The translations under genes and the position numbers were made by a program. Below the pieces are notes generated by a model. The model searched no databases. It saw only the letters and a program-made list of their open reading frames with translations, and had not been told where the DNA came from. Below are positions 908 to 19,797 of a DNA stretch of 22,156 nt, one piece after another. Source of the stretch: an uncultured cyanobacterium (lineage in GTDB: Bacteria > Cyanobacteriota > Cyanobacteriia > Cyanobacteriales > Cyanobacteriaceae); contig CAVVOP010000012.1 of the NCBI GenBank assembly GCA_963749915.1, forward strand, positions 1 through 22,156, read 5' to 3'. Positions within the stretch are counted from its first letter, which is position 1. The number at the start of each line of letters is the position of its first letter.

Positions 908-1387
908 GAGCCTATTTGAGATCTTTGACAGATGTTAAGCTAAGCTAATGATATCGGAGTGATTGAGAAACTGATGGACGCTTTACATCAACGAGTGCGC
1001 CAGCAGGTAAAAAAAAAGCCAAGTGGACAACCTTGATTATTGTGTGAATATTCCCAAGATCACTATTCTGTTAGACCATGGTTATCATCCAGACCACTTG
1101 AGGGAGGAATTAGAAAAGGTCTATCCCCAAATCATGACAAAAATTAAGTTTGAACTGTCAACGAAACCTTCAAAACAAGAAAAGGCTGCACTTGGAAAAT
1201 CAGGATTTGTGCCGGCGATCGCCAGATGGGTAATTGAACGTTCAAATGGGTGGATGGAGAGATGTAAGATCCTTGTCAAGAACTTCGAGAGGACTCTATC
1301 AAATGCGACGGCAAAACTCAATCTTTGCTTTGTCAGACTAATGATTAAGCGGCTTGCCGCCTCTGGCTAGAGATCTCAAATAGGCTT
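908..1387 (+). mobile_element. Internally deleted IS5-family element, 480 bp
   Basis: Terminal inverted repeats GAGCCTATTTGAGATCT (908-924) and AGATCTCAAATAGGCTT (1371-1387) match at 16/17. TA on both flanks. A-run frameshift motif near 1008-1018. Confidence 0.9.
955..1370 (+). pseudogene. IS5-family transposase remnant
   Basis: GVIEKLMDALHQRVRQQVKK../KWTTLII jumps to ILLDHGY..RWVIERSNGWMERCKILVKNFE (DDE C-terminus). N-terminus and first catalytic region are absent. Confidence 0.85.
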
Positions 1388-1687
1388 TATATTTTCAGAT
1401 GATTTTTTCTGTTTCTTTTCAGGTATGCTACTTGATAGTTTACTAAGTGTATTAACTAATTCTTTTAATTCTTGTACTTCTTTTTTAAGCTGTTCAAATT
1501 CAACTAAAGTAACACCACCAATCCAAGTTTTTTTAATAAGTAAAGTTTCTTCAAGCCCAAAATATTCAGCAATAATCACGTTTAATGCTCTTGAGCAATT
1601 AAGATTATTTTCCTGACAAAATTGGTCAAAGCGATGGTAAAGTTCGGGAATTATATATCCTGCTACCTTTTCATTTTCAGTAGTCAT
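1376..1687 (-). pseudogene. N-terminal half (RHH-like + coiled coil) of a split DNA-binding protein gene; C-terminal half at 14068-14313
   Basis: AGYIIPELYHRFDQFC..SRALNVIIAEYFG. Last codons KPI* come from the IS inverted repeat. KKSSENI is shared with the 14068 ORF. Confidence 0.75.
1388..1408 (+). repeat. 21-bp direct repeat, left copy
   Basis: TATATTTTCAGATGATTTTTT, identical to 14293-14313. Confidence 0.9.
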
Positions 1688-1771
1688 AATCAGTAATATA
1701 CTTAGTACGATAAAAGTATATCAAAAGTATAAAAGATAAAATATGATAATTCCCTGTAAATATTTACAAGA

Positions 1772-2347
1772 TTATTTATTATTTCTTCTCCATTCCCAAG
1801 GCTTCTCTAAATTCTTGCTGTAAATATTTAAACCTTTCTTAATAGCGAACTGCTTGCAGCAGCGCTTGCGCTCCGCCTCTGCTTGTTTTATCTCATTCCA
1901 AATAGGACAATCAGACTTATATTGAGGATAAGGATAAACCCAACCATTCTTAACCTGCTTAACTTGAACAGCTTCGCCATTAAGAAGATATAAAACAGCT
2001 ACACTTCTACCATATCTATCAGTATTAGTAATATCGAGATTAACTTTATTTCCATTTGATTGTAAAAGCGATCTTAAATAATCACGAGATTCAATGCCAT
2101 ATTCTTGATCTTTTTCTGGACTATCGATGCAGGCAAATCTTATTTTTAATTCTTCATTATCACTAGATATTACACGGAGTGTGTCACCATCATAAATGCT
2201 TCCTTCTTTTATTTGATATACTTGTTGTTGTACTTGGTAATTTACTTTATTGTTATTTTCACTAATTGCTTGATTATTATTATTTTGAAAGTAAACCCAG
2301 AGAAGGAATAAGCCTATAATTAAAGGTAATTTATTGAGTATTTTCAT
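1772..2347 (-). CDS. Thermonuclease (SNase) family protein with N-terminal membrane anchor
   Basis: IYDGDTLRV, IRFACIDSPE, DRYGRSVA and PWEWRR motifs. Confidence 0.92.
   Translation of the reverse strand: MKILNKLPLIIGLFLLWVYFQNNNNQAISENNNKVNYQVQQQVYQIKEGSIYDGDTLRVISSDNEELKIRFACIDSPEKDQEYGIESRDYLRSLLQSNGNKVNLDITNTDRYGRSVAVLYLLNGEAVQVKQVKNGWVYPYPQYKSDCPIWNEIKQAEAERKRCCKQFAIKKGLNIYSKNLEKPWEWRRNNK
1845..1876 (-). repeat. 24-nt SDR5-like in-frame insertion in a HIP1-like site
   Basis: Minus strand GCG|GAGCGCAAGCGCTGCTGCAAGCAG|TTCGC adds ERKRCCKQ. Confidence 0.8.
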
Positions 2348-2352
2348 AAGGG

Positions 2353-2380
2353 GAATTACGAATTACGAATTACGAATTAC
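2353..2380 (+). repeat. Heptamer tandem repeat (GAATTAC)x4, STRR-type
   Basis: Four perfect copies directly upstream of the thermonuclease start codon. Confidence 0.95.
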
Positions 2381-2460
2381 GAACTAATAATGACTACTAA
2401 TTAATATTAACAAATATAGCACAATAATAGAAATAAAGCTATAGTAAACAAGCTAATATT

Positions 2461-2547
2461 ATGGCAACAATAGATATACAAGAAAGAACATTTAAGTTTA
2501 CTATAAGAATAGTTAAATTATGTAAATTTCTCAAGGTAAATGGGTAG
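2461..2547 (+). pseudogene. N-terminal fragment of a four-helix-bundle protein
   Basis: MATIDIQERTFKFTIRIVKLCKFL, typical start of this family; stops after 28 aa. Confidence 0.65.
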
Positions 2548-2663
2548 CTCAAGAATTTCTCGGTTTCTTGGGCGACAGACTTTATCCCCATGGGAGTAAA
2601 GATAGAACCCACCCCGAATGAATCTCAGACACTCGGAACTACAGTAAGCTCTCCCTATATAGC

Positions 2664-2861
2664 TTATCTCACTCTCTCCTTTGACGAGAGCAAGCAGACA
2701 CTAAAATTAACGCTACCCACACCCAACCCCCAGCCAACTCCCGCCAGCAGGTTGTAAGAAGCAGCCGCAGCAAAGGCAGCACCAGCGATCGCTCCTGTGA
2801 CCTGTAATGCCAAGAACAGCTTGAGGATGTGATTGGATTTTGATTCTGAACTTCCGTTCAC
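2664..2861 (-). CDS. Small membrane protein, probable paralog of 19369-19590
   Basis: Hydrophobic Gly/Ala-rich segments; GVGSVNF versus GGSVSF; start overlaps the upstream stop. Confidence 0.6.
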   Translation of the reverse strand: MNGSSESKSNHILKLFLALQVTGAIAGAAFAAAASYNLLAGVGWGLGVGSVNFSVCLLSSKERVR

Positions 2862-3300
2862 CTTCGTTGGTCCCGCTGCCGCAGTTTCTCCAGCTTCTTT
2901 TTTATGGACTCGCTTGGCACTCCCGTCATGGAATTGAAACTTTGCCTCACTGCCTCCTCAGATTTGTGGACTTCCTCTGCCAAACCAGGAATGGTGAAAT
3001 TTCTGTTCTTCATGTAGTCCAGTTGGCGGTAGTTAAAAAGTGCCATCAGTTCGGCAGCACTGTACTGAGCAGCGACATCAACGCTTCCTAAATTTTGTTC
3101 TCTAATATCTTCGAGGGGATCTCGATCTACGTCCACCTCAATTTCTTCGTTCTGTTCCGAGGCAATTTCAACTTGGGAACTAGGCATGGAAACAAGTTCT
3201 GACCCAAACCCGTGACCATTACCATTTTGTTCTCCTTCAGCCATTGGCGGTTGAGTTATTACCGGAGGAAACGTGTCCATCGTTGAACCGGACTGGATGT
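2858..3300 (-). pseudogene. 5'-truncated paralog of the KfrA-like protein at 18908-19393
   Basis: Shares QYSAA and FT(I/V)PGL motifs. The first ~16 codons of the listed ORF are transposon inverted repeat; the HTH is missing. Confidence 0.7.
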
Positions 3301-3505
3301 GGCGTAAAGCTAGGGAAGCTGCAAAATCGGCAAAGTAGCTAAAACTCAATCACTGCAAAGGTTTTATGATAGCTACTAAGTAATTTAAATACACTATGGT
3401 TATTCTCTAGCATAGTTCCGAATTTTATCTAGAGATGACACTTTATGAACTTTTTTTAAATATAGGGATAAAAAAGAGCCTTTTAGGATATGATTATCAG
3501 AAATA

Positions 3506-3533
3506 AGTTCCGACACTATCTAAAAGCGGAATA
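3506..3533. other. Candidate tyrosine-recombinase resolution site
   Basis: AGTTCCGACAC-TATCTA-AAAGCGGAATA: 11-6-11 layout with inverted TTCCG/CGGAA; related AGTTCCGAA near 3414. Confidence 0.35.
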
Positions 3534-3554
3534 AATATAGGAGCATAATCTAAC

Positions 3555-5805
3555 TTGAAACAAAATTGGGAAGTAGAAGAACTAATTGAATATTGGATTT
3601 TATTACCATCTGAAATGGCATTGTTAAGAAATAAAACAGGAGCAAAACGAATTGGTTTTGCAGTTTGTTTCAAGTATTTTCAGTTATTTAGTCAGTTTCC
3701 AGAAGCTCTTACCCAAATCCCTCTGGTAGTAATTAATTATATTGCTAGTCAAGTTAACGTATCATCTTCACTATATTTAGAATATGATTGGCAAGAAAGA
3801 AGTAGCAGATACCACAGAGAGCAAATTCGGGACTTTTTTGGTTTTAGATTAGTACAAGAACTAGATTTTCAAAAACTCAAAAACTATTTATTATCAGATA
3901 TATTACCCCAAGAACAAAAAGAAGAACATTTAATTATAGTAGTTGAGCAATATTTCCAAGAAAGCAAAATAGAACTGCCTAGTAAGAAAATATTACTACG
4001 TTTAATTCGTTCAGCGGTTCGTCAATTTGAAGAAGAGCGGCAACCGAACCACCTAGAGAATTACGCTCTCATTCCCCTATTATTCGTTATACTTTAGTAT
4101 CTGCTTTTTCCTGGTTAAGATTACTCCAAGTTACGGACAATTTGGTAGATTTACTGATTTCTATCATACATAGTATAAGTAGAAGAGCCGAAAGAAAAGT
4201 CGATACAGAATTAATCAAAGACTTTAAAAAAGTCACGGGTAAAAATCATCTTCTTTATCTTATGGCTAATGCTAGTTTAGAAAAACCTGATGGTGCTGTA
4301 TCTGAAGTTATCTTTCCCGTAGTAGATGAAAACACACTATCAAATTTAGTCAAAGAGTTTAAATCTCAGGGTACTGCTTATCGTCAAAAAGTACATAATG
4401 TAATTCGTTCTTCTTATAGTCGTCATTACCGTCGCTTAGTACCGTCATTAAGGCAATGAACGGATTAATCGTATTAACTATGAAATAAGTGTTCTTCAAG
4501 CGTTGAGGGAAAGATTAAGATGTAAGGAAATTTGGGTAGTTGGTGCAAATCGTTATCGTAATCCCGATGAAGATTTACCCTCAGATTTTGAACAACATCG
4601 AGAAAATTATTATCAAGCATTGCAGTTACCAATGGATGTGGAAAGTTTTATCACTCCCTTGAAAATAGCATTATCATCTAATTTGATTACTTTAAATGAA
4701 GGAATACCCAAGAATAAGAAAGTCAAAATCTTGGACAAAAAAAATGGTTGGATTAGTGTCACACCTTTGGATAAACAAGCTGAACCAGTTAATATTTTTC
4801 GATTAAAAAGTGAATTGGTGCAAAAATGGCCGATGACAAGTTTGTTAGATGTGTTAAAGGAGGCTGATTTAAGAATCGGTTTTACAGATAGTTTCAAAAG
4901 CCTTGCCAGTAGGGAAGTTTTAGAAAAAGATGTATTACAAAAAAGGTTATTGCTTTGTCTGTATGGATTGGGTACGAATACAGGATTAAAACGAGTTAGT
5001 GATGGTACACCAAATATTGATTACCATGAACTTCGTTATATCAAACGCCGTTTTATTCATAAGGATTCACTTCGGGAAGCCATCGCCTCTGTAGTTAATG
5101 CTATTTTTGAGATCAGAAATCCTGAGATTTGGGGAAATGGTACTACTACCTGTGCATCTGATTCTAAGAAGTTTGGTGCTTGGGATCAGAATTTAATGAC
5201 GGAATGGCACCTGCGTTATGGTGGTAGGGGTGTGATGATTTATTGGCACGTTGAGAAGAAGTCAACTTGTATTTACTCTCAATTAAAAACTTGTTCTTCT
5301 TCGGAAGTGGCGGCGATGATTGAAGGGGTATTGCGTCACGATACTCAAATGACCGTTAAACAGCAGTTTGTGGATACTCATGGGCAAAGTGAAGTCGCTT
5401 TTGCTTTTTGTCACTTGTTGGGTTTTGAGTTGATGCCTCGACTCAAAAATATTGGTAAACAAAAATTATATCGTCCAGAAGCAGGAGATAAAGAGAGTTA
5501 TGAGAATTTACTCCCTGTTTTAACTCGCCCCATTAATTGGGATTTAATCCGTCAGCAATATGAGCAGATGGTGAAGTATGCTACGGCTTTGAGATTAGGT
5601 ATTGCTGAACCCGAAGCGATTTTACGTCGTTTTACTCGTGCTAATGTTAAACATCCTACCTATCAGGCTTTGGGGGAATTAGGAAAGGTAGTTAAAACTA
5701 TGTGCTTTAACACCTTTAATTTATAGTCATATTAATCCTTACGGTACGTTTCATTTGGATATGAATGAGCGACTTGTGCTTAAGGTGGAGGTGGTGGTGG
5801 GGTGA
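3555..5805 (+). pseudogene. tnpA: Tn3-family transposase, fragmented
   Basis: DUF4158-like N-terminus, ASDSKKF, DTHGQSE and [12 protein letters not shown] tail. Frame breaks near 4035, 4450 and 5701; far shorter than a ~990-aa TnpA. Confidence 0.92.
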
Positions 5806-5807
5806 TC

Positions 5808-6509
5808 ATGCAACGTACCAGTGCTAAAGTTAAGGCTAGAGCGATCGCTAAATTATTAAGGGATGAACATCCTGATTACAATTATCTTAAAAGTGTTTTT
5901 CGGCATCTGCGTACTGAGCTAAATATTGAGGTAACTCATTCTGAAAAGAAATTACCAAAAGTTCCTACGGAAGAAGAGTTACATAAATACTATCAAGCTG
6001 TTTGGAAAACTCGCAATGTGCAGGATATGGTGATTATTAAGACTTTTCTCTATACGGGTGTAAGAGTATCGGAGTTAGTTAATATTCGATTGGAAGATGT
6101 GGATTTTGATCGTTGTCAGATTCGGATTAATTCAGGGAAAGGGGGAAAGGATAGAATAGTTCCGTTTCCAATTTCTTTTAAGGAAGTTTTGGCTATGCAC
6201 GTTGATAAGATGGAGGGTAAAAGCGCTAATTATTTATTTGAGTCTAATCGTCATCAAAAATATAGCGATCGTGGAATTAGAAAGATTTTGACAAAGTATG
6301 CAGACATGGCTGAATTAGATCATTCCATTTCACCCCATCAATTACGACATTTTCTGCTGACATGGCTGAAAAAACAAGGGATTGATGATGCTTTAATTCA
6401 ACCCTATTCTGGTCATTCTTCTCGACAGTCATTAGAAGTTTATTCTCGCTTAAGTTTAAATGAAGCACAGTCTGCTTATGATAACGTTATGTCCAAATTC
6501 CCTCTGTGA
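5808..6509 (+). CDS. Tyrosine recombinase (integrase-family resolvase of the transposon)
   Basis: [22 protein letters not shown] and GHS..SLEVY catalytic motifs; alternative GTG start at 5802. Confidence 0.93.
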
Positions 6510-6644
6510 TAGCTTTTTAGCTACTTTGCCGATTTTGCAGCTTCCCTAGCTTTACGCCTAATTGAGAAGAACTGTTTGTCACTTGCCCCTCGTTGCAAGA
6601 ACCTTCTATTTTCGCCGACTCATAGGTTATTCTTCTTATGTCAT

Positions 6645-6977
6645 CTATCTAATTGCAACATCAATTAAAGGTTCTCCTGTATGATGAGGGGTAATCTGAA
6701 TCATTATTTTTTGTTCTAGTTTATTCAAAAAACTAAACAAACGACTTTCGGAAAATAGATGATATTTCCCTTTCATTAAATTAGAAACTTCTGGTTGTTT
6801 AATATTGAGTAAATTAGCTATTTCTTGTTGTTTTAAATTACGATTTTCTAACATCTTCCGGACAGCAAAACCGAGTTTAGCACGAGTCAGAAGTTCATCT
6901 CCATCATCTAAATCCATATCAGCAAAAACATTACCACTACTTTGTGTAAATTCAAAGGACATGATTTCTTCAGTCAT
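6645..6977 (-). CDS. XRE-family HTH antitoxin (HigA-like)
   Basis: SSGNVFAD..LKQQEIANLLNIKQPEVSNLMKGK; overlaps the toxin stop codon. Confidence 0.9.
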   Translation of the reverse strand: MTEEIMSFEFTQSSGNVFADMDLDDGDELLTRAKLGFAVRKMLENRNLKQQEIANLLNIKQPEVSNLMKGKYHLFSESRLFSFLNKLEQKIMIQITPHHTGEPLIDVAIR

Positions 6978-7339
6978 TGATTTTTCTCCTTAGATTTTTC
7001 TAATGCTTGTTTGTACCGTTTTTTAATTAAATCCACATCTTTTTGGGCAGTTTTAATTCCTTTCGGTGATTTTTTAACAAAAGCATGAAGAACATAAATA
7101 CAGTCGCCGATTTGTACAGCATAAACTGTTCTGTAAGTATCAGAATCGAATCTGGTTACAATTTCAAACACTCCACTGCCAACTCCCTTAAAAGGTTTGG
7201 CATCAGATGGCTTGTCTCCACACTGCGCATCATACAGAGATGAACCAATTTCACGGCGAACAAAATCAGGAAATTTTTTAACTTGTTCGAGACTATCTCC
7301 CATCCAAATAACTGATTTAATTTCACTGGTTTCTGACAA
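6974..7339 (-). CDS. RelE/ParE-superfamily toxin (HigB/Gp49-like)
   Basis: KPFKGVGSGVFEIV..YRTVY..IYVLHAFVKKS; toxin-first order; GGAG RBS. Confidence 0.9.
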   Translation of the reverse strand: MSETSEIKSVIWMGDSLEQVKKFPDFVRREIGSSLYDAQCGDKPSDAKPFKGVGSGVFEIVTRFDSDTYRTVYAVQIGDCIYVLHAFVKKSPKGIKTAQKDVDLIKKRYKQALEKSKEKNQ

Positions 7340-7350
7340 CTTGCTTCTCC

Positions 7351-7376
7351 AGATTATAAGTAATTACTTATAATCT
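7351..7376. promoter_or_regulatory. Perfect 26-bp palindrome, likely operator of the toxin-antitoxin operon
   Basis: AGATTATAAGTAATTACTTATAATCT equals its own reverse complement; contains TATAAT; directly upstream of the toxin RBS. Confidence 0.7.
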
Positions 7377-7524
7377 TAACCTATTTCAGTAAGCGAGCGA
7401 TCGCTATTCAAGTAACAATATATTTTCTATTAAACCTTAATCTAGGTCAAAGCTCGCCTTCTAGCCTTCTCGTCTTCCGCTTCGCATATTCCGGTTCGTT
7501 ACAAGTAATAAATAGTTTTTGCCA

Positions 7525-7571
7525 AGTATTTTACTTAGTATTTTACTTAGTATTTTACTGGTATATTACTA
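7525..7571 (+). repeat. 12-bp tandem repeat AGTATTTTACTT, about 4 copies
   Basis: Two perfect and two degenerate copies, each an AGTA-N3-TACT dyad. Confidence 0.85.
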
Positions 7572-7589
7572 GGGCTATTTAAAGCCCTA
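7570..7589 (-). terminator. Hairpin after the Gp157-like gene
   Basis: TAGGGCT-ATTTAA-AGCCCTA just past the stop codon. Confidence 0.5.
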
Positions 7590-7595
7590 TTGAGA

Positions 7596-8034
7596 TTATT
7601 TAATTGATAAATAACTGGACTTTTCTCCTAGTTCTGCATACTTTAAGGCTTCATTATCACCGTTAATTACTGCTTCTTTAAGTGCCTTTTTATCTACTTC
7701 TATTGTTACCTTCTGGTATTGTTGAGGATAGCTTTTAGCATCTTCTCTGAGTAAATGTAAGGGTGCAACCGATGCTTTTCTGATGGATATATTAAATTTA
7801 TTTGTTCTGAGTTTAGTTTTACCTATTTTCTCTAAATGTTGTTTAAGATATTCCGTTAACCATTCGATAGTTTTCTCATCCTTTTTAACTAATTTATTGA
7901 GTCTGTCAGCTTCTGCTTTTCTCATTTCCAACCATCTTTTTCTCGACTGAATTAAGCATAAAATAGAATCAATTTTATTCATGAATTGTTCATTTGTTTC
8001 TTCTGCTTCTGCTAATAATTCTAAGTATTCCAAG
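7596..8034 (-). CDS. Siphovirus Gp157-family protein, exon 2
   Basis: NKIDS..KAEADRL..EWLTEYL..KFNISIRK..VDKKALKEA..YLSIK; joins exon 1 in frame to give 182 aa. Confidence 0.85.
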
Positions 8035-10441
8035 ATTAAAGTAGGAGTAGCTGTCCCCAGCTAAACCTCTCTTCAGAACGGTACGTGAGACTTTCACCTC
8101 ATACCGCTCCTCTCAAATATGTCCTTTGTCATAGGTACAAATCAACTGCCTTTGGTACTTCCATCACTTGCAGTTTTTATGTCATGACAATGTCGATGTA
8201 GAACTTGTAGATTATTATATTCATCTTTGCCCCCTAATGATTTGGGGATAACATGGTCGATTTCTACTAAGTCACCATCCTTTAAATATAGTCCACAGTG
8301 ATTACATTTACCCTTCTGTCTCTTGAGTAATGTTGCCATTCTCGTTAATAATTCTGGGTGCTTTCCTAACCTTGCTGACCAGTACAACATATCTCCATCG
8401 AAAAGGCTTTTATTCCCTTTGACTTTGACGTGTCTTACAATGGGTGTGTCTGAGTGTCTAAGAAGTTTTGTGCTATCTGTACTAAAACACCAATTTCTCA
8501 TTATGACCTTTGAGTAATCGGTGTGCCAGTATTTCTGAGCTACCCAAGAGTTTGATTTCTTAGGATGTCTTCTTTCAGCCCATCTTTTTAATTGTTGATA
8601 TAAAATATTGTCACAATAGTTGTATGTTTCTTTGCTACAGACAGTGCTGTAATAATTACTCCATCCTCTGATGATTGGATTTAATTTGGAAATTAAAGCC
8701 TCTTGAGATACACTTCTGTGACTTCTTATAATATCGCCAATCTTTTTGATGTGGGCTTTTACTTTACTTTTTGAGGGTTTTATGATAGTTTTAAATCCAA
8801 GTTGATTTCCGTGTGCGGATTTTCCACTTTGATATTTCCCAACGGGATATTGTCTGATGTTAAATCCTAGGAAGTCAAAGTCAAATTCTAAATTTCCTTC
8901 ATGCTCATTGAGTGTATGGGAAATTTTGGTTTTGCTCGGTTTTAATTCTAGCCCTACTTCTTTTAACCAGTTTTCAATAATTAATTTACATTGTAGGATT
9001 ATTTCTAAGTCTTTGTGCAGGATAACAAAATCGTCTGCATATCTTATAAGACTGAGGTTATCCTCATTCTCTTTTTTCCTACCTTTGAGAGTTCTGGCAA
9101 ATTTCTTGACTTCTAATTCCATACCGTGTAAGGCTATATTTGCCAGCAACGGAGATATAACTCCTCCTTGTGGCGTGCCTTTGTCAGTAGTAATTAGGTC
9201 TTTGTTTTCCATTACTCCACTCTTTAGCCAAGCCTTGACCTGTCTGTTTAGTTGGGGGTAAGAATTGAGTTTTGTAAGTAGTTTATTGTGATTGATATTG
9301 TCAAAACATCCTGCTATGTCCGCATCAAGTACATATTTAGGTACATATCTGATTGCGTTAAATATAGCTCCAATGGCATCGTGACATGACCTTGCTGGTC
9401 TAAATCCGTAGGAATTGTCCTCGAAAGTTGATTCCCATTCCGGTTCTAATCCTAGTTTGACGAGGGCTTGTAAGGCTCTATCTTTTATGGTAGGTATTCC
9501 TAGACCTCGCTTCTCATCATTTGCTTTTGGTATGAAAACTCGGCGTAATGGCTTTGCTTTTCTACCTATGCTTAGGTTATTAACAAGTTCAAGTCTTTGA
9601 TTGGGTGTGAGTGACTTTTTACCATCAACCCCTGCCGTTTTCTTGCCTTGATTATCTTGGGTCACACGTCTGGTTGCCCAGAGTTTTCCATAATAGGATT
9701 TGGTTAGTAATCGCTGTAAACTGTGAACCAATTTGACATCGCCACTTTGACTTGCTCTGAATATTCTTGTTTGTAACTTAAACGTTGCAATCTCTACGAT
9801 TTTCCAATCGATTTGATTCCAAGCGTTCCATTTATACTTTACGTTCATAACATTTGAATTACTACTAAAAACTATTCAATACATATCTAAGTGTGTACGT
9901 CAGCATATCCTTTTCATTACAAAAAGGCATTGGCTTTTTACACAATCTCTCCTCTTTGGGGCTTACGCTGGTTACTACTTGAGGTTTTCGACCTCCTCAA
10001 GAGCCGTTCTGAGGTTATTTCGTTCCTGTCTTCCGTATTTTCTGACTTTAGATTCTTACTCTCCACCGAGCTCTATATTGATGTTCCCAGTTCAAATCTA
10101 CAAATTTGCTGGTATGTTAGAGTGTTGCCTTTTGGCTATAGCTTATCAGCCTTATTTAGCTATTTCTGCTTCACGATGGTTATAACGTAAGTTCCTTGCG
10201 TAATCATAATCAGAATTGCTAGATGTGTACCACTTTAGGCTAGTAGTAGGAACACCATTTAACCCTGCGTTAGCCTATGAGTTACCACCTCAATTGACTA
10301 AGGGTTATGCTGTCAACCCAACATCTGGGCGGATGGTTTTGCACCACCACGAAAAACAAGTTGTCAAGGTACATATCTGTAAACCTTGCCTAGCTTACGT
10401 TTCAGTCAAGGGACTTAGACTTTGGCTAGAACGAATCGCAC
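8035..10441 (-). mobile_element. Group II intron (IIB/CL-like), 2407 nt
   Basis: 5' GTGCG at 10441; domain V GAGCGGTATGAGGTGAAAGTCTCACGTACCGTTC; domain VI ending in AT at 8035; removal restores the host reading frame. Confidence 0.95.
8142..9848 (-). CDS. ltrA: Group II intron reverse transcriptase/maturase with HNH endonuclease
   Basis: RGLGIPTIKDR, SYGFRP, GTPQGGVISPLLAN, YADD, maturase NPIIRGWSNYY, and C-terminal CNHC..DHVIP..NLQVLHRHCH. Confidence 0.97.
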   Translation of the reverse strand: MNVKYKWNAWNQIDWKIVEIATFKLQTRIFRASQSGDVKLVHSLQRLLTKSYYGKLWATRRVTQDNQGKKTAGVDGKKSLTPNQRLELVNNLSIGRKAKPLRRVFIPKANDEKRGLGIPTIKDRALQALVKLGLEPEWESTFEDNSYGFRPARSCHDAIGAIFNAIRYVPKYVLDADIAGCFDNINHNKLLTKLNSYPQLNRQVKAWLKSGVMENKDLITTDKGTPQGGVISPLLANIALHGMELEVKKFARTLKGRKKENEDNLSLIRYADDFVILHKDLEIILQCKLIIENWLKEVGLELKPSKTKISHTLNEHEGNLEFDFDFLGFNIRQYPVGKYQSGKSAHGNQLGFKTIIKPSKSKVKAHIKKIGDIIRSHRSVSQEALISKLNPIIRGWSNYYSTVCSKETYNYCDNILYQQLKRWAERRHPKKSNSWVAQKYWHTDYSKVIMRNWCFSTDSTKLLRHSDTPIVRHVKVKGNKSLFDGDMLYWSARLGKHPELLTRMATLLKRQKGKCNHCGLYLKDGDLVEIDHVIPKSLGGKDEYNNLQVLHRHCHDIKTASDGSTKGS

Positions 10442-10551
10442 TGTAAATCAGCAGGTATATCTACACCTTCAAGATTCTCAATTGTCTCCTCTAATTCCTG
10501 AAGGCGATCGCTTAATTCATAGAGTTTGTATGTACCTTTAGTTTCTGTCAT
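10442..10551 (-). CDS. Siphovirus Gp157-family protein, exon 1
   Basis: ATG at 10551; MTETKGTYKLYELSDRLQELEETIENLEGVDIPADL-H (codon CA|C split by the intron). Confidence 0.85.
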
Positions 10552-10613
10552 GTTTTTAGTGTTAGTGAGTAGTAATTGATTTGTAGGTGAGGGCGGTTAA
10601 ACCCTCTAATTTC

Positions 10614-10979
10614 TTATTTATTTACCTTTTTTCCTCCTTTATTTCCGTTCCCCATTCCCTGTTCCCCGTTTCCTTTAGACTTAGGAGATTCTACTTGATT
10701 AGCATAGACAAATAGCTTACTTTTTTTCTCTCCTTCTTCTGTTTTCCATGAATTTTGTTCAATCTTTCCTGATACAATTACATAACTTCCTGAGTGCAAA
10801 TAGTTATTAACAAACATGGCTTGATTTCCCCAACATTCTACAGGTATCCATGAGGTTTTTTCCTCTCCTTTTATTACTGTATTGACTGCTATACTAAAGC
10901 TAACTTTTGTCGAGTTCTCATAAACATTCATGGTAGGTTCTGCACCTATATAACCAGCTATTGTTACTGTATTTATCAT
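10614..10979 (-). CDS. ssb: Single-stranded DNA-binding protein
   Basis: MINTVTIAGYIG..FSIAVN..TSWIPVECWG..VSGKIEQNSWK OB-fold pattern. Confidence 0.93.
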   Translation of the reverse strand: MINTVTIAGYIGAEPTMNVYENSTKVSFSIAVNTVIKGEEKTSWIPVECWGNQAMFVNNYLHSGSYVIVSGKIEQNSWKTEEGEKKSKLFVYANQVESPKSKGNGEQGMGNGNKGGKKVNK

Positions 10980-11185
10980 TCTTATTTCTTACCTTTTTAA
11001 TTTGACTTTCCTATAACTTAAGATTAGTATTAAGGCTTATTTCTCTCTCTTAATGTTTCCTTTCGTTACTCTTCTATTGTATATTATTTCCTCGAAAATA
11101 TCAATTACTTTATTATATATAATTAAGAATAAAAAACAATAAAAATGTTATAATAAGGATAAATATAGTAAATTAAAATTAATTT

Positions 11186-11698
11186 ATGGATAATAAATCA
11201 CAGACTCAAATAGTTGATAAAAGCTTAGTTAATGTCCCCCTAAAGTTTAATTTACTGGAAGATGAGGACATCGAACAAGCTAGTATTGTTTTCTCGGCAA
11301 TGCGTACTTATATTAAACGTTATTTAGTAGAAAAAATAGATTATGGTACTATCCCTTATTGTGGGAATAAAGAGGTTTTATTTAAAGCTGGTGCAGAAAA
11401 GCTCCTTCGTCTTTTTCGTTTACGTCCTACATTTGATTTAATTGATAAAATTGTAGATTATGAGACAGAATTATTCCATTATCATTATTGTTGTTCTCTC
11501 TATCGTTTTGGTGAATTGGTAGGTCAATGTGATGGAATTGCTAATAGTAGAGAAAAAAAATTTATTAAACAGATTAATAATAAAGATTATAGTGTTATTA
11601 ATACTTTATGTAAGATGTCACAAAAAAGATCTATGGTTGGTGCTGTACTTATAGTTTGTGGTGCGTCTGAGTACTTCAGTCAAGATTTAGAAGATTAG
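11186..11698 (+). CDS. Phage-type hypothetical protein, putative single-strand annealing protein
   Basis: DYGTIP..LFKAGAEKL..NTLCKMSQKRSMVGAVL..FSQDLED; divergent from ssb. Confidence 0.55.
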   Translation: MDNKSQTQIVDKSLVNVPLKFNLLEDEDIEQASIVFSAMRTYIKRYLVEKIDYGTIPYCGNKEVLFKAGAEKLLRLFRLRPTFDLIDKIVDYETELFHYHYCCSLYRFGELVGQCDGIANSREKKFIKQINNKDYSVINTLCKMSQKRSMVGAVLIVCGASEYFSQDLED

Positions 11699-11882
11699 TA
11701 AAGCTAAAATCAATGAAGGTAAGTTAAGGAATTATCCCTAGCTTACTTATTTACAAATCAAACAAAAAGGTAAACGAATAAATAAAATATATATCGATTC
11801 TCTTTTTATATATCTCATGTTATCATATTTTAAAATTATCTTAATTATACGTTATACTTTATTTATTATATATTAGATTATT

Positions 11883-12251
11883 ATGTCAGAATTGAGACCA
11901 GGTCATATTCTTCCTGATGAATATAAAGAAAAGGCGATCGCCAATGGTATAAATATAAAAACAGTATATCAAAGAATAAAGAGGGGATGGGAAATAGATA
12001 AAGCTGTAACAACGCCACCGAGTAAAACGGGAACATCGGCAATATATAATAAAAGAGTACATGGATCTATAACAGCAGGTGATCGCCCAAAAGGATCACC
12101 GATAACTTTTACTATGTATAAAGACTTAGAGGATTTATTTAATGATGCCTTGAAAGAAAGTAAATTAACAAGAAGTGATTTTGTAGCTAATGCAGTTGAA
12201 CAATATTTATTAAAATGGACTCCAAAGAAAAATCTCAGCAAAATAAAGTAA
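11883..12251 (+). CDS. DNA-binding protein (phage-type HTH plus RHH-like C-terminus)
   Basis: NGINIKTVYQRIKRGWEIDKAVTTP; ITFTM..TRSDFVANAVEQYL. Confidence 0.7.
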   Translation: MSELRPGHILPDEYKEKAIANGINIKTVYQRIKRGWEIDKAVTTPPSKTGTSAIYNKRVHGSITAGDRPKGSPITFTMYKDLEDLFNDALKESKLTRSDFVANAVEQYLLKWTPKKNLSKIK

Positions 12252-12395
12252 TTACAGTGGATTTCTCTAATAGGGAAACAGGGAATGTAGAGATTTACAC
12301 AGAACAACCTAAAATTATTAATCATCCAATAATTAGAGAAAGACGGAAAAGATTAGGCTTAAAGCTAAAAATTAATAATCGATGGTTTTAAGTTT

Positions 12396-12415
12396 GGGCG
12401 AAAAGCCCTTTTTTT
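12396..12415 (+). terminator. Rho-independent terminator
   Basis: GGGC-GAAAA-GCCC followed by T7. Confidence 0.6.
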
Positions 12416-12535
12416 CTGACTCTTATCTAGGAAAGGTGTTAGGATTTATGGTTTTTGTTTACCGTCATTAAAAACCGCTTCGCTAAGGACTTTTCCATAG
12501 TAGGCGGTTTTGTGTTGATAAATTGTTAATGTTAG

Positions 12536-13019
12536 TTGTCTGTAAATATTTACATTCCTCGATGGGCTTCGTAACTAGCCACTTCTCGATCTAATCTTTC
12601 GTATTCTTCGATGTAATCAAACTCACCATTAATTAAATGGTAATAGTCTTGTTGTTCCTGATGTTCCTGATATTGGCGGTTAATTTTTTCTTCTTCGGTG
12701 AACTCTAGGTATTCCTCAAAGCTATTGAATCCTAGATAAGACAAAAGGGCATAACCATGTTTGCATAAGGCTTTCTCTTGTCTGTAAATATTTACATTCC
12801 TCGATGGGCTTCGTAACTAGCCACTTCTCGATCTAATCTTTCGTATTCTTCGATGTAATCAAACTCACCATTAATTAAATGGTAATAGTCTTGTTGTTCC
12901 TGATGTTCCTGATATTGGCGGTTAATTTTTTCTTCTTCGGTGAACTCTAGGTATTCCTCAAAGCTATTGAATCCTAGATAAGACAAAAGGGCGTAACCAT
13001 GTTTGCATAAGGCTTTCTC
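12536..13019. repeat. 242-bp tandem duplication of the SWIM gene 3' end
   Basis: 12536-12777 versus 12778-13019; single mismatch (12751 A / 12993 G). Confidence 0.95.
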
Positions 13020-13352
13020 CCCTTCAAATACGATCCATTGATTGCCATAATCTGGGCAGGTGCAATCAATAAAGCAATCATTAGGGGTTAAGGTGTATTC
13101 CGTTCCTTTGATGGTGTTTTTAGCAGTGTAGGTATTATCTTGATTATCGATAATCTCAATGTCACTGCTACGGGCTGCACGATCGCTTCCCATGATTTGT
13201 TTAACTTCTTCTGCCGTTACCTTAATTTGTTCTCCTGTTTTTAGGGTTACTGTGCAATATTTGTTACTGCTAACCTTGATCATCTTTATATCTTTGCGAT
13301 CAATCCATGTAACCTTTTCTAGGTTACTGAAATTAAATAATATATGTGACAT
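12792..13352 (-). CDS. SWIM zinc-finger protein
   Basis: CTCPD...CKH (CxC-xn-CxH). Confidence 0.85.
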   Translation of the reverse strand: MSHILFNFSNLEKVTWIDRKDIKMIKVSSNKYCTVTLKTGEQIKVTAEEVKQIMGSDRAARSSDIEIIDNQDNTYTAKNTIKGTEYTLTPNDCFIDCTCPDYGNQWIVFEGEKALCKHGYALLSYLGFNSFEEYLEFTEEEKINRQYQEHQEQQDYYHLINGEFDYIEEYERLDREVASYEAHRGM

Positions 13353-13475
13353 GACTTTTTTACCTTTTTGTTTGATTAACTTTATTATAGCACATCCCCT
13401 TGAATATATGTAAGAAAATAGTAAATATTTTTAAGAAAATAAGTTATAATAGATGTATCAAACAAATAAAGGTAA

Positions 13476-13700
13476 ATGAAAAAAATGTATTATCTATCTT
13501 CGTTAAACAATCAGGAAAAATTAGAAGTTGTTTTGTCAGACTTAGAACACGCTTTAGTTATCCTTGATGAGGTTTCGGATAAGTTTCGTTCCACTCCTTC
13601 AGAATTAGCACGAATTGAAGGGGATTTATTACGGTTAATCGAATCTATTGATTGTGAGATTCAAGATAATGAATTTCAAGGTCTGGGTAACGTAGCTTAA
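13476..13700 (+). CDS. Small acidic hypothetical protein
   Basis: AAGGT RBS-like motif and TATAAT upstream; helical acidic sequence. Confidence 0.65.
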   Translation: MKKMYYLSSLNNQEKLEVVLSDLEHALVILDEVSDKFRSTPSELARIEGDLLRLIESIDCEIQDNEFQGLGNVA

Positions 13701-14067
13701 TTTATTCGGGGGGGCTTCGTCCCTTCCTTCACATAAATAAATGGGGACACTACGCCCCCAGTAAACCACCACTGACCACAGGTTCGGCAAGCTCACTGAC
13801 CACTCTTTCACCAAAACTAGGGGGCGAGGAGTGAAGCGTGGGGAGGAAGTGGAGCGAGTGGAGCGACTGACGAAGGAGGGAGACGGAACGAACGCAACGC
13901 AGCGAGACGGCGAAACGACGAAGCACGAACCCACCGCACGAATAGTAAACAATAATGGGTGGGAGAAAATAACAAATGGAGCGGTAACTAAGCAAAGATA
14001 AACGATGATTCCTTATCAGAAAACCAGCGACACAACAGGGTGGGCTATTTTAGAGCCTGGGTAAGAA

Positions 14068-14313
14068 TTATGAAACAAAATAATTACTATTCTCATCAAA
14101 AAACCATCCTTTACCTTCTGGGTCTTTTGATTTCGTCCATTCTATATATTCTTCTTTCGTTATCTTATTATCTCTAAATTTCTTTTTATATTGATTTATT
14201 GCACCTCTGGAGACATTAAATCTTTTAGCTAATTCTGTTGTATTTAATTCTATTCGCTCAAGGTTATCTGATAAGCGATCGCTTTCTAATTCTATATTTT
14301 CAGATGATTTTTT
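14068..14313 (-). pseudogene. C-terminal HTH half of the split gene
   Basis: KKSSENIELES..TTELAKRFNVSRGAI..EWTKSKDPEGKGWFF; begins at the 21-bp repeat. Confidence 0.75.
14293..14313 (+). repeat. 21-bp direct repeat, right copy
   Basis: Identical to 1388-1408. Confidence 0.9.
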
Positions 14314-14419
14314 ATCATTGAACTTCAGCAAAAGACGAACAGCGATCGCTATAATCAATTCAAAGTTCAAAATTCAAAATGCTTCCTGTGACATAGAAAC
14401 TGAATGAATCTAAAATCAG

Positions 14420-15046
14420 ATGACAAACATACAATCAAAGTTTATTAATTTTGAAGGTGGAAAAATCCATTATTTAGAAGTGGGTAAAAAAGACCAGCCT
14501 TGTGTTTTATTATTACATGGAGCAAGTTTCAAAGCCCAAACTTGGCAGGATTTAGGCACTTTACAATTGATAGCGGAAAAGAATTATCATGCTTTAGCGA
14601 TCGATTTACCTGGATATGGTAATTCAACTGTCGTTTCTACTCCTCCTGCTCAGTTTCTCTCAATCTTATTAGAAGCTTTGAATTTAGATGCACCGATAAT
14701 TATTTCTCCTTCTATGAGTGGAAATTATAGTTTCCCACTAGTTGTTCATCATCGAGAACAATTAAGTGGTTTGGTGGCGCTCACCGAAGGTGCGGCTACG
14801 CCGATCGCTCCTGTCAGTATAAGTAAATATGCTCAACAATTGCAGGGGGTTAATTTACCTACTTTAGCAATTTGGGGAAGTAATGACAGAATTGTACCCA
14901 CTCGAATGGCAGATAAGTTAGTTGAATTAATGCCGAATGCGTCAAAAGTCATTTTAAAGGGTGCTGGTCATGCTTGCTATATGAGAGCAACAGATGAATT
15001 TCATGATCATTTGATTCAGTTCATTAACCAAATATTCAATCAATAA
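14420..15046 (+). CDS. Alpha/beta hydrolase (ABHD14-like)
   Basis: LLLHGASF, AIDLPGYG, SPSMSG, WGSND and GAGHACY motifs. Confidence 0.93.
   Translation: MTNIQSKFINFEGGKIHYLEVGKKDQPCVLLLHGASFKAQTWQDLGTLQLIAEKNYHALAIDLPGYGNSTVVSTPPAQFLSILLEALNLDAPIIISPSMSGNYSFPLVVHHREQLSGLVALTEGAATPIAPVSISKYAQQLQGVNLPTLAIWGSNDRIVPTRMADKLVELMPNASKVILKGAGHACYMRATDEFHDHLIQFINQIFNQ
14777..14808 (+). repeat. 24-nt SDR5-like in-frame insertion in HIP1
   Basis: GCG|CTCACCGAAGGTGCGGCTACGCCG|ATCGC adds LTEGAATP. Confidence 0.85.
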
Positions 15047-15104
15047 ATAATGAGCAGTTTCAGGTGTTAGTTGACAGGTGTTGGGTAATAGTTTTGAGAA
15101 ATAA

Positions 15105-15161
15105 GCGATCGCGTAGCGCCAGCCTTTGGCTGATCGTGCGTAGCACGCCACTGCCTGATCG
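15105..15161 (+). repeat. Compound SDR5-like hairpin cluster at a HIP1 site
   Basis: HIP1 followed by CAGCC-TTT-GGCTG and CGTGC-GTA-GCACG hairpins with repeated GATCG. Confidence 0.65.
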
Positions 15162-15282
15162 TTTATACTTTTACAGTTGAGAGCATAATTCTGAGATTCA
15201 TTAGGAAATTAAAGAGTTTAATCCTAAATATAAAAGAGATTGCTATAATTAATCAAATTATTATTATTGGAGAAGGGATACT

Positions 15283-15525
15283 ATGCTCACAGAAACGATG
15301 GTTAAACCTTCTATTTGGATTGACCAAGAAATTAAATTAACACCAGTTAAAAATCTTTTTTTATTTAAGTTTAGCGAGACTTTACAAAATAGATTAGATG
15401 AACTTTCTCAAAAAAGAAATCAAGAACAATTATCTGTAGAGGAAGAAGCAGAATTGGCAGGAATACTAGAGTTAAATCAAATTTTTACTCTTTTAAATGC
15501 TAAAATTATTGCTGAACCTCAATGA
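15283..15525 (+). CDS. Small antitoxin-like protein coupled to the HNH gene
   Basis: LQNRLDELSQKRNQEQLSVEEEAEL; ATGA overlap with the next gene. Confidence 0.7.
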   Translation: MLTETMVKPSIWIDQEIKLTPVKNLFLFKFSETLQNRLDELSQKRNQEQLSVEEEAELAGILELNQIFTLLNAKIIAEPQ

Positions 15526-15971
15526 TTAATTCCAACCTGCGTCAGTTAATACGAAAGCGAGCGAATTATTTGTGTGAATATTGTCACTCACCAGAAGAAG
15601 CTAGTGCGGCACTTTTTCAGATAGATCATATTACTCCTCAATCATTGGGCGGTTCTGACTCTCCAGAAAATCTAGCTTTAGCTTGTCAACGGTGTAATAG
15701 TTATCGTTATAATTTTACGACTGCTATTGATCCACAAACTCAACAAGAAGTAAATCTTTATAATCCTCGCCAACAAAAATGGTCAGAACATTTCATCTGG
15801 AGTGCAGACGGTTGTTTTATTATTGGACAAACAATTATTGGACGTGCTACTTGTCATCGTCTTGATTTTAACGATCAATACCATAATGACGGATTTATTA
15901 TTAAAGCAAGGCGACTATGGGTAATTGGTGGTTGGCATCCTCCCAGCGAAGAGGCGAAACTCTCCGACTAA
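15522..15971 (+). CDS. HNH endonuclease
   Basis: CEYC..IDHITP..GG..NLALACQRCN. Confidence 0.92.
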   Translation: MINSNLRQLIRKRANYLCEYCHSPEEASAALFQIDHITPQSLGGSDSPENLALACQRCNSYRYNFTTAIDPQTQQEVNLYNPRQQKWSEHFIWSADGCFIIGQTIIGRATCHRLDFNDQYHNDGFIIKARRLWVIGGWHPPSEEAKLSD

Positions 15972-16069
15972 ACACCGTTACCAGTTATCAGCTTATTGAT
16001 TTTGTATTTTGGATTACCTTTGATGTTAATATCTTGGTTATTGATGGCATTTAATAAAGATATTTAGCT

Positions 16070-17038
16070 ATGGCTGGTAGAAATACAACTCCTCGTCGTA
16101 AAACGACACAAGCGAATAAAACTCCTGTGACAACAGAATCTGTGACAGCAGATATTCCTCAAAGTTCACTCTCCTCGATGACGGTTAAGCTAGAGGCGAT
16201 CGCCGTCCCGGAGCAACAAATACGTCGTTACTTTGACCCTGATAAAATGGCTCAATTAACCGCTTCGGTAAAAGAGCATGGTATTTTAGAAAATTTGCTG
16301 GTACGTCCTCATCCTACACGTAAAGGCTTTTATCAATTAGTGGCAGGGGAAAGGCGTTATCGGGCGGCTAAAGAGGCAAAGTTAACAGAAGTTCCTGTTA
16401 TGGTCAAAGATTTGACTGATGAGGAGGCTTTGGCTATTTCTTTGGTGGAGAATTTGCAACGGGATGATTTAAACCCTGTGGAGGAAACGGAGGGTATTTT
16501 ATTGTTGTTGTCCACGAGACTCAAACTCTCTGTTGCTGAAATTTCTTCAACTCTTTATCGGATGCACAATTTGTTAACGAAGAAAGTTACCAATAACGTT
16601 ATTGGTAAATCGGAAAATGAGAGTGAGGTTGAGATACAAAAGGCAATTGAGGGTATTTTTGCTGAGTTGGGGTTGATGAGTTGGGAGTCTTTTGTCAGTA
16701 ATCGTTTACCTTTGTTAAAGTTACCAGAGGATTTATTGGAGTCTTTACGGAAAGGCAAAATTGCCTATACTAAGGCAAAGGCGATCTCGAAGATTGTGGA
16801 TGCGGATGAGAGGGAGAAGTTATTGGAGGAGGCGATCGAGTCTTCTTTATCTTTGACTCAAATCAATGAGAGGGTAGCAGATATTCTTCCCAAGAAAGAA
16901 AAATATGATCTGAGAAATCGTTTTGATGCTACTTATAAGCAGGTAAGACAAGCGAAGGGTATATGGCAAGATCCTCAGAAGCAGAAAAAGTTGAAGTCTT
17001 TGTTGAAGCAGTTAGAAAACTTAATAGATGAAGGTTGA
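16070..17038 (+). CDS. parB: ParB/Spo0J-family partition protein
   Basis: GILENLLVRP, LVAGERRYRAA, ENLQRDDLNPVEE. Confidence 0.95.
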   Translation: MAGRNTTPRRKTTQANKTPVTTESVTADIPQSSLSSMTVKLEAIAVPEQQIRRYFDPDKMAQLTASVKEHGILENLLVRPHPTRKGFYQLVAGERRYRAAKEAKLTEVPVMVKDLTDEEALAISLVENLQRDDLNPVEETEGILLLLSTRLKLSVAEISSTLYRMHNLLTKKVTNNVIGKSENESEVEIQKAIEGIFAELGLMSWESFVSNRLPLLKLPEDLLESLRKGKIAYTKAKAISKIVDADEREKLLEEAIESSLSLTQINERVADILPKKEKYDLRNRFDATYKQVRQAKGIWQDPQKQKKLKSLLKQLENLIDEG

Positions 17039-17106
17039 TAAGTCTCAGGTAGGTATCAGTAACCAGTGAGCAGTTATCTGTAGTTTTTTGAGGATGGGCG
17101 AGGGAC

Positions 17107-17541
17107 TCATCTTGCAGGAACTTTGAGCAATCCCATGCCCACTTGATGGAAATGGTCATCATCTGTCAAAATCTGATTGATTCCTAATTCTTTCATGACA
17201 ACCATAGATGATAAATCAGTAAAAGAAATTTGTGGTTTATCTAAATATTTTACTCTTAATTTTAAGGTTTGCTCAAATCGTTCAGGAGTTATCCAAATTT
17301 TCTGAAAATTATCATGTTCAAAACTCTTTAGTAATGACTCCATCGAGACTTTAGCTTGATAATTGTTTAATCGTCTAAAGAATAAAGTAAAAGTTTCGTC
17401 CAAAACATAATCTGTTGTATAAAATCTGCCTTTTTGTCGGAGAAAATTGTGATAAAACTCAACAGTTTCTTGATGATAAGTTTCCCGCTTATCATTAAGT
17501 GTTAACCATCCCCAAGTATCGATAAACAAAAGATTATCCAT
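17107..17541 (-). CDS. vapC: PIN-domain toxin (VapC-like)
   Basis: FIDTWGW..YVLDETFT..SFTDLSS..ILTDDDHF. Confidence 0.9.
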   Translation of the reverse strand: MDNLLFIDTWGWLTLNDKRETYHQETVEFYHNFLRQKGRFYTTDYVLDETFTLFFRRLNNYQAKVSMESLLKSFEHDNFQKIWITPERFEQTLKLRVKYLDKPQISFTDLSSMVVMKELGINQILTDDDHFHQVGMGLLKVPAR

Positions 17542-17752
17542 ATAAATCCGAGTCTATCTTATCAGCTAAATTCCCAGATTCTACAGCACCGACAAAATCA
17601 GCGAGAGGATCGATAATTTGCTCTTCATCAGCAGTGGCACTCTCAGAACATTTGAGAGAATGGAGAAAATTTAACACCATGTCTAACTGTTCAAGATCAA
17701 GTTGGTTGATTTCGTTTAAGACTTGTTGACGAACATTAATAAAACTACTCAT
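17534..17752 (-). CDS. Putative antitoxin of the PIN toxin
   Basis: Small acidic ORF overlapping the toxin start; DPLADFVGAV..IDSDLYG. Confidence 0.75.
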   Translation of the reverse strand: MSSFINVRQQVLNEINQLDLEQLDMVLNFLHSLKCSESATADEEQIIDPLADFVGAVESGNLADKIDSDLYG

Positions 17753-17864
17753 AATTGAATATTTTTTGGCACTTGACAGTAGGTTTTATAGATTTATTTT
17801 AGCAAAATACTCTGTAGTCGTTATTCTGAATTGATAAATTAAAAATAGACCAACTGGTCACTGG

Positions 17865-18407: not shown

Positions 18408-18410
18408 TTC

Positions 18411-18445
18411 GATTTTGGATTTGGGATTTTAGATTTTGGATTATA
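18411..18445 (+). repeat. Heptamer array (GATTTTG-like) x5
   Basis: gattttg gatttgg gatttta gattttg gattata, directly upstream of the nuclease start. Confidence 0.85.
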
Positions 18446-18588
18446 AAAACATCAACAAACATCTGGCAAACTCTCTAATCTTGGTCAGATTTGGAATTAT
18501 GCTCTTTGGCTCTGGGGATAGGAGAGCTTAAATATATTCTAAAGGAGTGAAATGCTGATGGGAAGGGGGTTAGACAGCACATTTATTT

Positions 18589-18880: not shown

Positions 18881-18907
18881 TCATAGGATAATTTTAAATA
18901 AAGGATT

Positions 18908-19590: not shown

Positions 19591-19605
19591 TTTATTATTC
19601 TATTT

Positions 19606-19794: not shown

Positions 19795-19797
19795 AAA

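Follow-up and report, generated by a model that had tools for sequence, protein, structure and literature searches.

Integration-dependent immunity, as outlined for mycobacteriophages, places the attachment site attP inside the phage repressor gene, next to a linked tyrosine integrase and with a defined attB as partner, and the truncated repressor is the active form (PMC8092301). A regulator-like gene split in a similar layout occurs in an uncultured cyanobacterium of the Cyanobacteriaceae (GenBank assembly GCA_963749915.1), on contig CAVVOP010000012.1, whose 22,156 bp make up the window analyzed here. Between positions 1388 and 14313 a 12.9-kb segment is bounded by a 21-bp direct repeat at which a gene for a protein of ∼174 amino acids (aa) is divided into permuted halves. 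An earlier note, made from the sequence alone, took the segment for an integrated plasmid or phage-like circle whose excision would switch the gene back on. Two further precedents bear on its joints: intramolecular replicative transposition, including that of Tn3-family members, is described as deleting DNA and losing the flanking repeats (PMC7986276), and tnpA together with a tyrosine recombinase is given as the arrangement of the Tn4430 and Tn4651 subgroups (PMC7157771). We find that the feature is real, and that transposons and inter-copy recombination most likely produced it in an ordinary way. Our leading interpretation, held tentatively, is that the 12.9-kb stretch represents a piece, in permuted order, of a larger island or plasmid module present in many copies, built by separate accidents, in which the 21 bp are a leftover and no attachment (att) core.

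The 21-mer is exact at 1388 through 1408 and 14293 through 14313; no other site in the window matches it with three or fewer mismatches, and two matches were reached in none of 100 shuffles. The open reading frame (ORF) running from 1687 to 1376 reads ...KKQKKSSENI followed by KPI*, contributed by the end of an insertion sequence (IS), and the ORF running from 14313 to 14068 begins with KKSSENIELESDRL on the same strand and in the same frame, as the earlier note had observed. The latter frame has no stop as far as a TTG at 14370, so that a fusion ORF of 100 aa results. On paper, recombination across the repeat would release a circle of 12,905 bp and make the ORF whole. That the halves belong to one gene is borne out within the genome, where the gene occurs unsplit on four further contigs: C15 (15264 through 15785) and C8 (443752 through 444273) carry intact ORFs, the C10 copy is frameshifted, and the C9 copy is cut at codon 141. 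It is borne out in a large protein collection as well, where 18 of 24 matches, the protein's own cluster included, span 91% or more of the 174 aa. The N-terminal half (N-half) in the window has two substitutions (1668 and 1636) absent from the four other copies.

Because the module on C10 and C15 runs, in window coordinates, 6559..14313/1388..2523, the window copy is a circular permutation of it. Arm by arm, identity to the other copies forms a mosaic, compatible with one parent or with two. Protein P0029 combines alleles of different gene copies, so the copies exchange sequence through the 174-aa gene. The C8 copy (443,760 through 444,276) consists of the gene only, with 97 to 100% identity from the start codon to just before the stop and unrelated flanks, which suggests gene conversion among copies.

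In the window the permuted unit is closed by a Tn3-family transposon, recognized by its Tn3 DDE transposase, resolvase, and long terminal inverted repeats. It is 100% identical over 3258 bp to a copy at C4:918-4175; the C4 copy is flanked by a 5-bp duplication (AAGAA/AAGAA), and the window copy by GATGT and TAATT, with no target duplication. The duplication is present in two of the three other two-ended copies (C4 and genome G018), and two further loci lack an end pair. The transposon's left end cuts a plasmid gene of ∼202 aa at codon 56, and the missing first 55 codons were not found elsewhere in the assembly; the right flank runs on without a break on C8, C10, and C21. Judged by these flanks, the window copy is a rearranged one and no simple insertion. 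Since this joint closes the unit, the 12.9-kb unit has existed only since the young transposon joint was formed, which undercuts the earlier proposal of a self-contained circle entering by site-specific recombination. TnpA is broken in both identical copies, so movement in trans is likely. Shorter relatives with the same ends occur in G018, G008, and G001.

The left junction is defined by a decayed IS, assigned to the IS5 family by its transposase, short inverted repeats, and lineage target; the IS5 model NF033580 is matched only partially (E = 2e-10) and below its cut-off. Only the C terminus of the transposase (1023 through 1370) is left, the last base of the right end is altered, and the remnant is half the usual length, its relatives measuring 897 to 1093 bp. 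No second copy exists in the genome. TATA stands at the right end and TATA-GA-TA at the left. Among 18 loci of related elements examined, TATA stands at both ends in all 15 two-ended cases, the inner TA having been part of the search motif, and in two of the three one-ended cases as well. As the remnant is decayed, single-copy, and changed in its last base, the IS5 joint likely predates the transposon joint, an order that is hard to square with the entry of a 12.9-kb unit as a circle.

The position of the IS end invites an explanation by a single event, which we consider unlikely. DNA from 14314 round to the IS5 end at 1387 would have been inserted into an intact gene with a 21-bp duplication, by one-ended IS5 transposition or by an insertion whose target duplication is long; C12 would be a circular plasmid, its permutation a matter of where the assembly starts, and what else the host replicon held would have been deleted later by the transposon. 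Such an event accounts for precisely one unit with its 21 extra bp and calls for no coincidence, and the IS end falls at its target. Duplications of long and variable size are known (PMC2853133): they measure 19 to 26 bp for IS1630, and restriction-modification genes have longer ones. ParB and KfrA are encoded in the flanks, and the T and A at 14313-14314 may represent one half of a former TATA duplication. However, the IS5 lineage duplicates TATA only, position 14314 resembles no transposon end, the right junction also occurs with another downstream flank (P0018, below), and no IS5 junction, specifically none that links the IS5 side with 14314, is present among the matches listed for runs X1 through X3. 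The IS5 involvement suspected earlier is seen at the left end, at a TATA target.

The right junction can be followed in other assemblies. Contigs of X1 and X3, both runs from one study, begin at 14284 and reach 15944 and 14855, respectively; with 12 differing letters and 24 gaps, the X1 piece must come from a molecule other than the window. Protein P0018, encoded on a 12.6-kb contig of another assembly, has the same 19-residue foreign start joined to a different C terminus, which departs where the C8 copy departs. X1 contigs on 2354 through 3301 and 6559 through 7046 continue with 40 and 18 nontransposon letters, and these transposon-free ends share a depth of 5 to 6 with the right junction. 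From these contigs, the right junction is apparently present elsewhere without the transposon joint. Runs with small word shares were left out, except X6, which added nothing on the junctions, and low depth over IS5 in X1 and X3 was not counted as absence.

A right junction seen without the transposon joint would also be expected if the Tn3-family copy had placed two partial module copies head to tail, each cut independently inside the gene (one through IS5, the other through an older break); the 21-bp overlap would then be chance, and no circle would ever have been integrated. We regard this as rather unlikely. The 174-aa gene is a frequent break point (three of the six gene-bearing segments in this genome are cut inside it, and a fourth is frameshifted), and the transposon flanks are of different origin. 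Against this, two cuts within 21 bp of each other have, by a simple estimate, a chance of ∼0.2% anywhere in the unit and ∼6% if both fall in the gene, and no other part of the module is duplicated between the arms. Least probable of all is an assembly artefact, in which a collapsed repeat or a chimeric read joined module copies at a 21-base overlap. Word lengths of 21 are common in assemblers, and the genome has many near-identical copies and open contig ends, but the right junction is present in other assemblies and the left junction lies on a biologically defined IS target.

Conservation of the split point bears on whether the 21 bp serve as a site. The predicted model of the 174-aa protein has two N-terminal helices (14 through 43), a long helix (61 through 85), a disordered linker (86 through 111), and a helical C-domain with two strands at its end. 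Pfam gave no match for the protein and Foldseek nothing below E 0.001 for the model. The top VIA rows are mostly ribbon-helix-helix (RHH) proteins with a weak Z of just 4.0 and root mean square deviations of 2.6 to 3.8 over 38 to 41 residues, and Atlas places RHH_1 on 34% of a cluster (score 0.77), so that the RHH identity of the N terminus is a predicted lead only. Over 18 homologues (the protein's own cluster, the fusion protein, and four partial proteins being left out), identity to the query is 0.81 for the N-domain, 0.74 for the C-domain, 0.25 for the linker, and 0.35 for the repeat peptide. The repeat peptide, which lies in the protein's most variable part, is exact in none of the 18, the four nearest retaining a similar KSSE peptide, and linker length varies greatly; the repeat does not behave as a core conserved across an element family.

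The right junction (14293 through 14322) forms a small bulged hairpin, TTCA-G-ATGAT/ATCAT-TGAA, which is a weak hint, as 268 of 20,000 random tails (1.3%) match it; the hairpin may reflect fold-back or microhomology at the break. The gene's own unsplit site folds more poorly and has no clear dyad. The unit shares 12 exact 21-mers with the masked rest of the genome, every one of which belongs to a palindromic repeat, to short tandem repeats, or to a module fragment, so the partner DNA is unlikely to have carried the 21 bp natively by chance. Probably, the 21-bp repeat is what trimming spared of a longer duplication and is not an attachment core.

These results weigh most directly on the circle of the earlier note, which would integrate and excise through an att core that its own regulator gene contains and switch that gene on by excision; we judge this very unlikely. 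The exact terminal repeat, the in-frame permuted halves with a real joined ORF, the tyrosine recombinase within the segment, and the hairpin speak for it. But that recombinase is a transposon resolvase, and the transposon is present on C4 too, where it has a duplication of its own; the recombinase is also the sole one, 4.1 kb from the N-half, with no dedicated integrase beside the split gene. The poorly conserved peptide, the missing dyad at the gene's own site, the improbable native match in the partner, and the youth of the closing joint relative to the IS5 joint all count against it, as do the comM islands described below, which use another site and enzyme. Very improbable, too, is a wider form of the idea, in which the 21 bp are a working site where the transposon recombinase or phage-like annealing proteins excise a 12,905-bp circle and rebuild an RHH-helix-turn-helix (HTH) regulator of the multi-copy island family. 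If true, this would mean a switch of the att-in-regulator kind that operates outside phages with a borrowed recombinase.

A switch at the level of the cell is in any case unlikely and largely moot, because intact copies of the gene stand on C8 and C15 and neither a rep gene nor an integrase of the segment's own was found. Loose ends at 1388 in X1, X2, and X3 represent the joined form across 14292/1409 that had been proposed as a test, as expected anyway from the paralogues at depth 12 to 35. Outward polymerase chain reaction (PCR) or a read test would be positive whatever the truth, since unsplit paralogues are present. The private alleles at 1668 and 1636, together with the stretches 2550 through 3300 and 13729 through 13812, which have no match elsewhere in the genome, make a fair test of excision possible. 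The empty site predicted for relatives was not found in searches with the DNA of each flank, which returned no close relative among 301 and 61 genomes, and none is excluded by them.

We favor, tentatively as stated, a history of separate accidents in four steps. An older break would have joined the C-terminal half (C-half) with its 21 bp to plasmid DNA at 14313/14314; the junction is seen in other assemblies, and the age of the break is an inference. Homologous recombination between this remnant and an intact gene copy on a module-bearing replicon would then have fused both molecules and left a direct repeat of ∼235 bp or more. An IS5 element, whose right end is seen at a TATA target in the left gene copy, would have brought about a deletion of intervening DNA that left 21 bp and broke the gene; only four TATA sites lie within 14068 through 14313. 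Finally, a Tn3-family copy would have joined 3300 to 6559 and removed the remaining module-bearing replicon, presumably by intramolecular transposition, in keeping with the missing duplication and the cut gene that are seen there.

Several points weigh against this history. No molecule was found with the long repeat of the second step or in the state preceding IS5, and an IS5 trimming that ends inside the repeat has a modest chance, so some coincidence remains. One G008 transposon copy likewise has no duplication, and the transposon flanks would look the same after cointegrate resolution or after two copies had recombined. To the left of the junction, the X1 and X3 contigs extend 30 letters, one below the 31-letter bridging rule; the transposon-free X1 contigs could derive from another copy or strain, and an IS5 junction or empty site may lie among X1 through X3 matches beyond those listed. 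Circularity of C12 could not be demonstrated from contig-end overlaps. The accidents favored here, the fusion of two copies, and the single insertion differ in history and share an outcome: the segment is likely a dead-end, defective relic.

The parent module is larger than the segment. It continues for more than 10 kb beyond the window's part on C10 and C15, with YdjM, HlyD-like, outer-membrane-efflux-like, AAA, pilin-like, and HTH genes, and fragments of it are also present on C1, C4, C8, C9, C13, C14, and C21; the backbone of the island family to which it belongs is present in many partial copies here (C1, C4, C9, C10, C13, C14, C15, C31, and C34). In two relatives, module genes lie between the halves of comM, in G003 over 56 kb (750,456 through 806,517) and in G010 over 72 kb (3,996,024 through 4,067,848). 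Each of these islands has a large serine recombinase of XisF type at one end, that of G003 passing the XisF cut-off with 487 against 375 bits. The islands split comM at two different points and have in common Gp157, SWIM, SNase, a HerA/FtsK-like ATPase, HlyD-like, AAA, and HTH genes. Among 20 genomes searched, comM was matched in 18 genomes of the family and is split in 2 of these, and XisF exceeds its cut-off in 4 of the 20; in the genome studied here no gene of XisF type reaches that cut-off, and comM is intact. An exact repeat search at the comM junctions returned ATCCCTGTCC in G010 and nothing clear in G003. The 174-aa gene is in neither island, G010 offering just a 39% match to the C-domain inside a DprA-like protein, and searches for it in viral and genome contigs gave nothing useful. 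Because the comM islands have an XisF-type recombinase and lack the 174-aa gene, the family comes with an integration site and an enzyme of its own, and the split gene stands outside this machinery. One full-text search found no paper uniting xisF, comM, and cyanobacteria; "magnesium chelatase" is absent from the main text of PMC4874684, whose element tables may bear on whether such comM elements have been recorded before.

The window is the whole of contig C12 in a 4.69-Mb assembly of 34 contigs, and its ends have no continuation or overlap among the other contigs. With ParB, KfrA, toxin-antitoxin pairs, and transposons, C12 looks like plasmid DNA; frequent GCGATCGC sites, along with the taxa of the protein relatives, indicate a cyanobacterium. 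The acr3-type arsenite exporter gene at its left end is the single one found in the assembly and is cut by the contig end, and no arsC was matched in the assembly with the query used. In the partner DNA, the second SNase and an outer-membrane-efflux-like gene (17865 through 18407 and 20333 through 20824) are distant relatives of module genes, and this likeness suggests that the partner holds the remains of a related element. Exact 21-mer matches were absent from viral and genome contigs, and hydrolase neighborhoods in metagenome contigs included no close relative. Adjacency of acr3 and the hydrolase is unsupported in two genomes of one genus, where the genes lie 6 to 8 kb apart with housekeeping genes between them, and upstream of 12 acr3 and 12 hydrolase relatives no motif across the junction was recognized, by eye only. 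A plasmid collection had no DNA match to 10400 through 14400 and one weak protein match.

The features of the window are collected in Table 1. The earlier reading of the cargo (ssb, Gp157, SWIM-like, toxin-antitoxin, and nuclease genes) as mobile-element DNA is borne out; the Tn3-family transposon, the tyrosine recombinase inside it, and the group II intron had gone unlisted. The single-strand annealing protein (SSAP) label once given to 11186 through 11698 lacks support in Pfam and NCBIfam; this 170-aa protein has 14 phage records at 28 to 37% among the matches listed, nearly all named hypothetical. No replication initiator family was found by Pfam among the segment's main ORFs, several of which have no family at all, in line with the earlier statement on rep. 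The intron is also present at the same site on C10, with a four-helix-bundle gene in the 5' part, and intron-less Gp157 alleles are found on C13, C15, and C8 and as the joint from 8034 to 10442 in three runs. The YdjM gene that precedes the 23S rRNA-IVP type gene on C9, C10, and C15 is missing from the window. A GAATTAC tandem repeat (2349 through 2385) stands at its position, and similar repeats flank YdjM on those three contigs; loss of YdjM by slippage deletion is possible from this layout.

Table 1. Positions of the features in the 22,156-bp window
Feature	Position	Strand	Family or remark
Partial acr3 gene, other flank of the segment	1-782		Family scan
Decayed IS5-family remnant, 480 bp	908..1387	+	17-bp inverted ends
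N-half of 174-aa gene, codons 1-100	1376..1687	-	Predicted RHH, coiled coil, start of linker
Left 21-bp repeat	1388..1408	+	Begins with TATA, target of the IS5 lineage
Thermonuclease (SNase), module gene	1772..2347	-	PF00565; copies on C9, C10, C15
5' stub of 23S rRNA-IVP (four-helix bundle) type gene	2461..2532	+	Cut off
C-terminal ∼146 aa of ∼202-aa family	2858..3300	-	Weak likeness to KfrA
Tn3-family transposon	3301..6558	+	53-bp inverted ends; PF01526, PF13700, PF00589
TnpA, broken, in pieces	3555-5726		
Tyrosine recombinase	5802-6509		PF00589
Gp49/HTH_37 toxin-antitoxin pair of the module	6645..7339	-	99.8-100% to C8 and C10
Sipho_Gp157 gene	7596..10551	-	Interrupted by group II intron
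Group II intron	8035-10441		Reverse transcriptase (RT)-maturase-HNH ORF 8142-9848
ssb	10614..10979	-	PF00436
170-aa phage-like protein and 122-aa protein	11186..12251	+	Both kept in the relatives' islands
Tandem duplication of 3' end of SWIM-like gene	12536-13019		Exact, 242 bp
SWIM-like gene	12792-13352	-	
C-half of 174-aa gene, codons 94-174	14068..14313	-	Predicted winged-helix-like
Right 21-bp repeat	14293..14313	+	Junction to foreign DNA at 14313/14314
Plasmid-like partner DNA	14314..22156		Family scan: alpha/beta hydrolase, HNH, ParB, PIN pair, second SNase, KfrA, HicAB, IS110

The locus shows that IS elements, Tn3-family transposons, and recombination between copies can mimic an integrated circle, and it cautions that junction PCR or reads prove nothing where intact paralogues exist. 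The more useful lead is the parent family of comM-splitting islands with an XisF-type recombinase in two relatives. The segment itself is probably an ordinary relic rather than a switchable circle.

With integration-dependent immunity (PMC8092301) the locus shares an element's regulator gene split by the terminal repeat, its halves permuted; unlike the phages as described, it lacks an element integrase linked to the gene, the flank searches turned up no empty site, and the split is not conserved. The cyanobacterial interruption elements that XisA, XisC, and XisF excise (PMC4874684) are matched by the G003 and G010 islands, with a host gene split in natural order, an XisF-type recombinase at the end, and a length of tens of kb, whereas the window segment splits its own gene with the C-half first, has no xis gene, and leaves comM intact. 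Long target duplications (PMC2853133) likewise give an exact direct repeat of one partner's sequence that exceeds the normal IS duplication, but here no restriction-modification genes stand at the ends, and one end is an IS5 at its usual target. Adjacent deletion or IS-bounded truncation by IS5-family elements has in common with the left junction an IS end exactly at its target and foreign DNA on either side; the window differs in having a 480-bp remnant with a changed last base and in that the deletion is a presumed one. The transposon resembles the Tn4430 TnpI and Tn4651 TnpS/T types, as they are described, in carrying tnpA and a tyrosine recombinase between long inverted ends (PMC7157771), and its ends read GGCG as against GGGG in some relatives. 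As in Tn3 intramolecular deletion (PMC7986276), a 5-bp duplication stands at the normal site, on C4, and is lost at the rearranged site, in the window, a parallel that accounts for the middle joint only.

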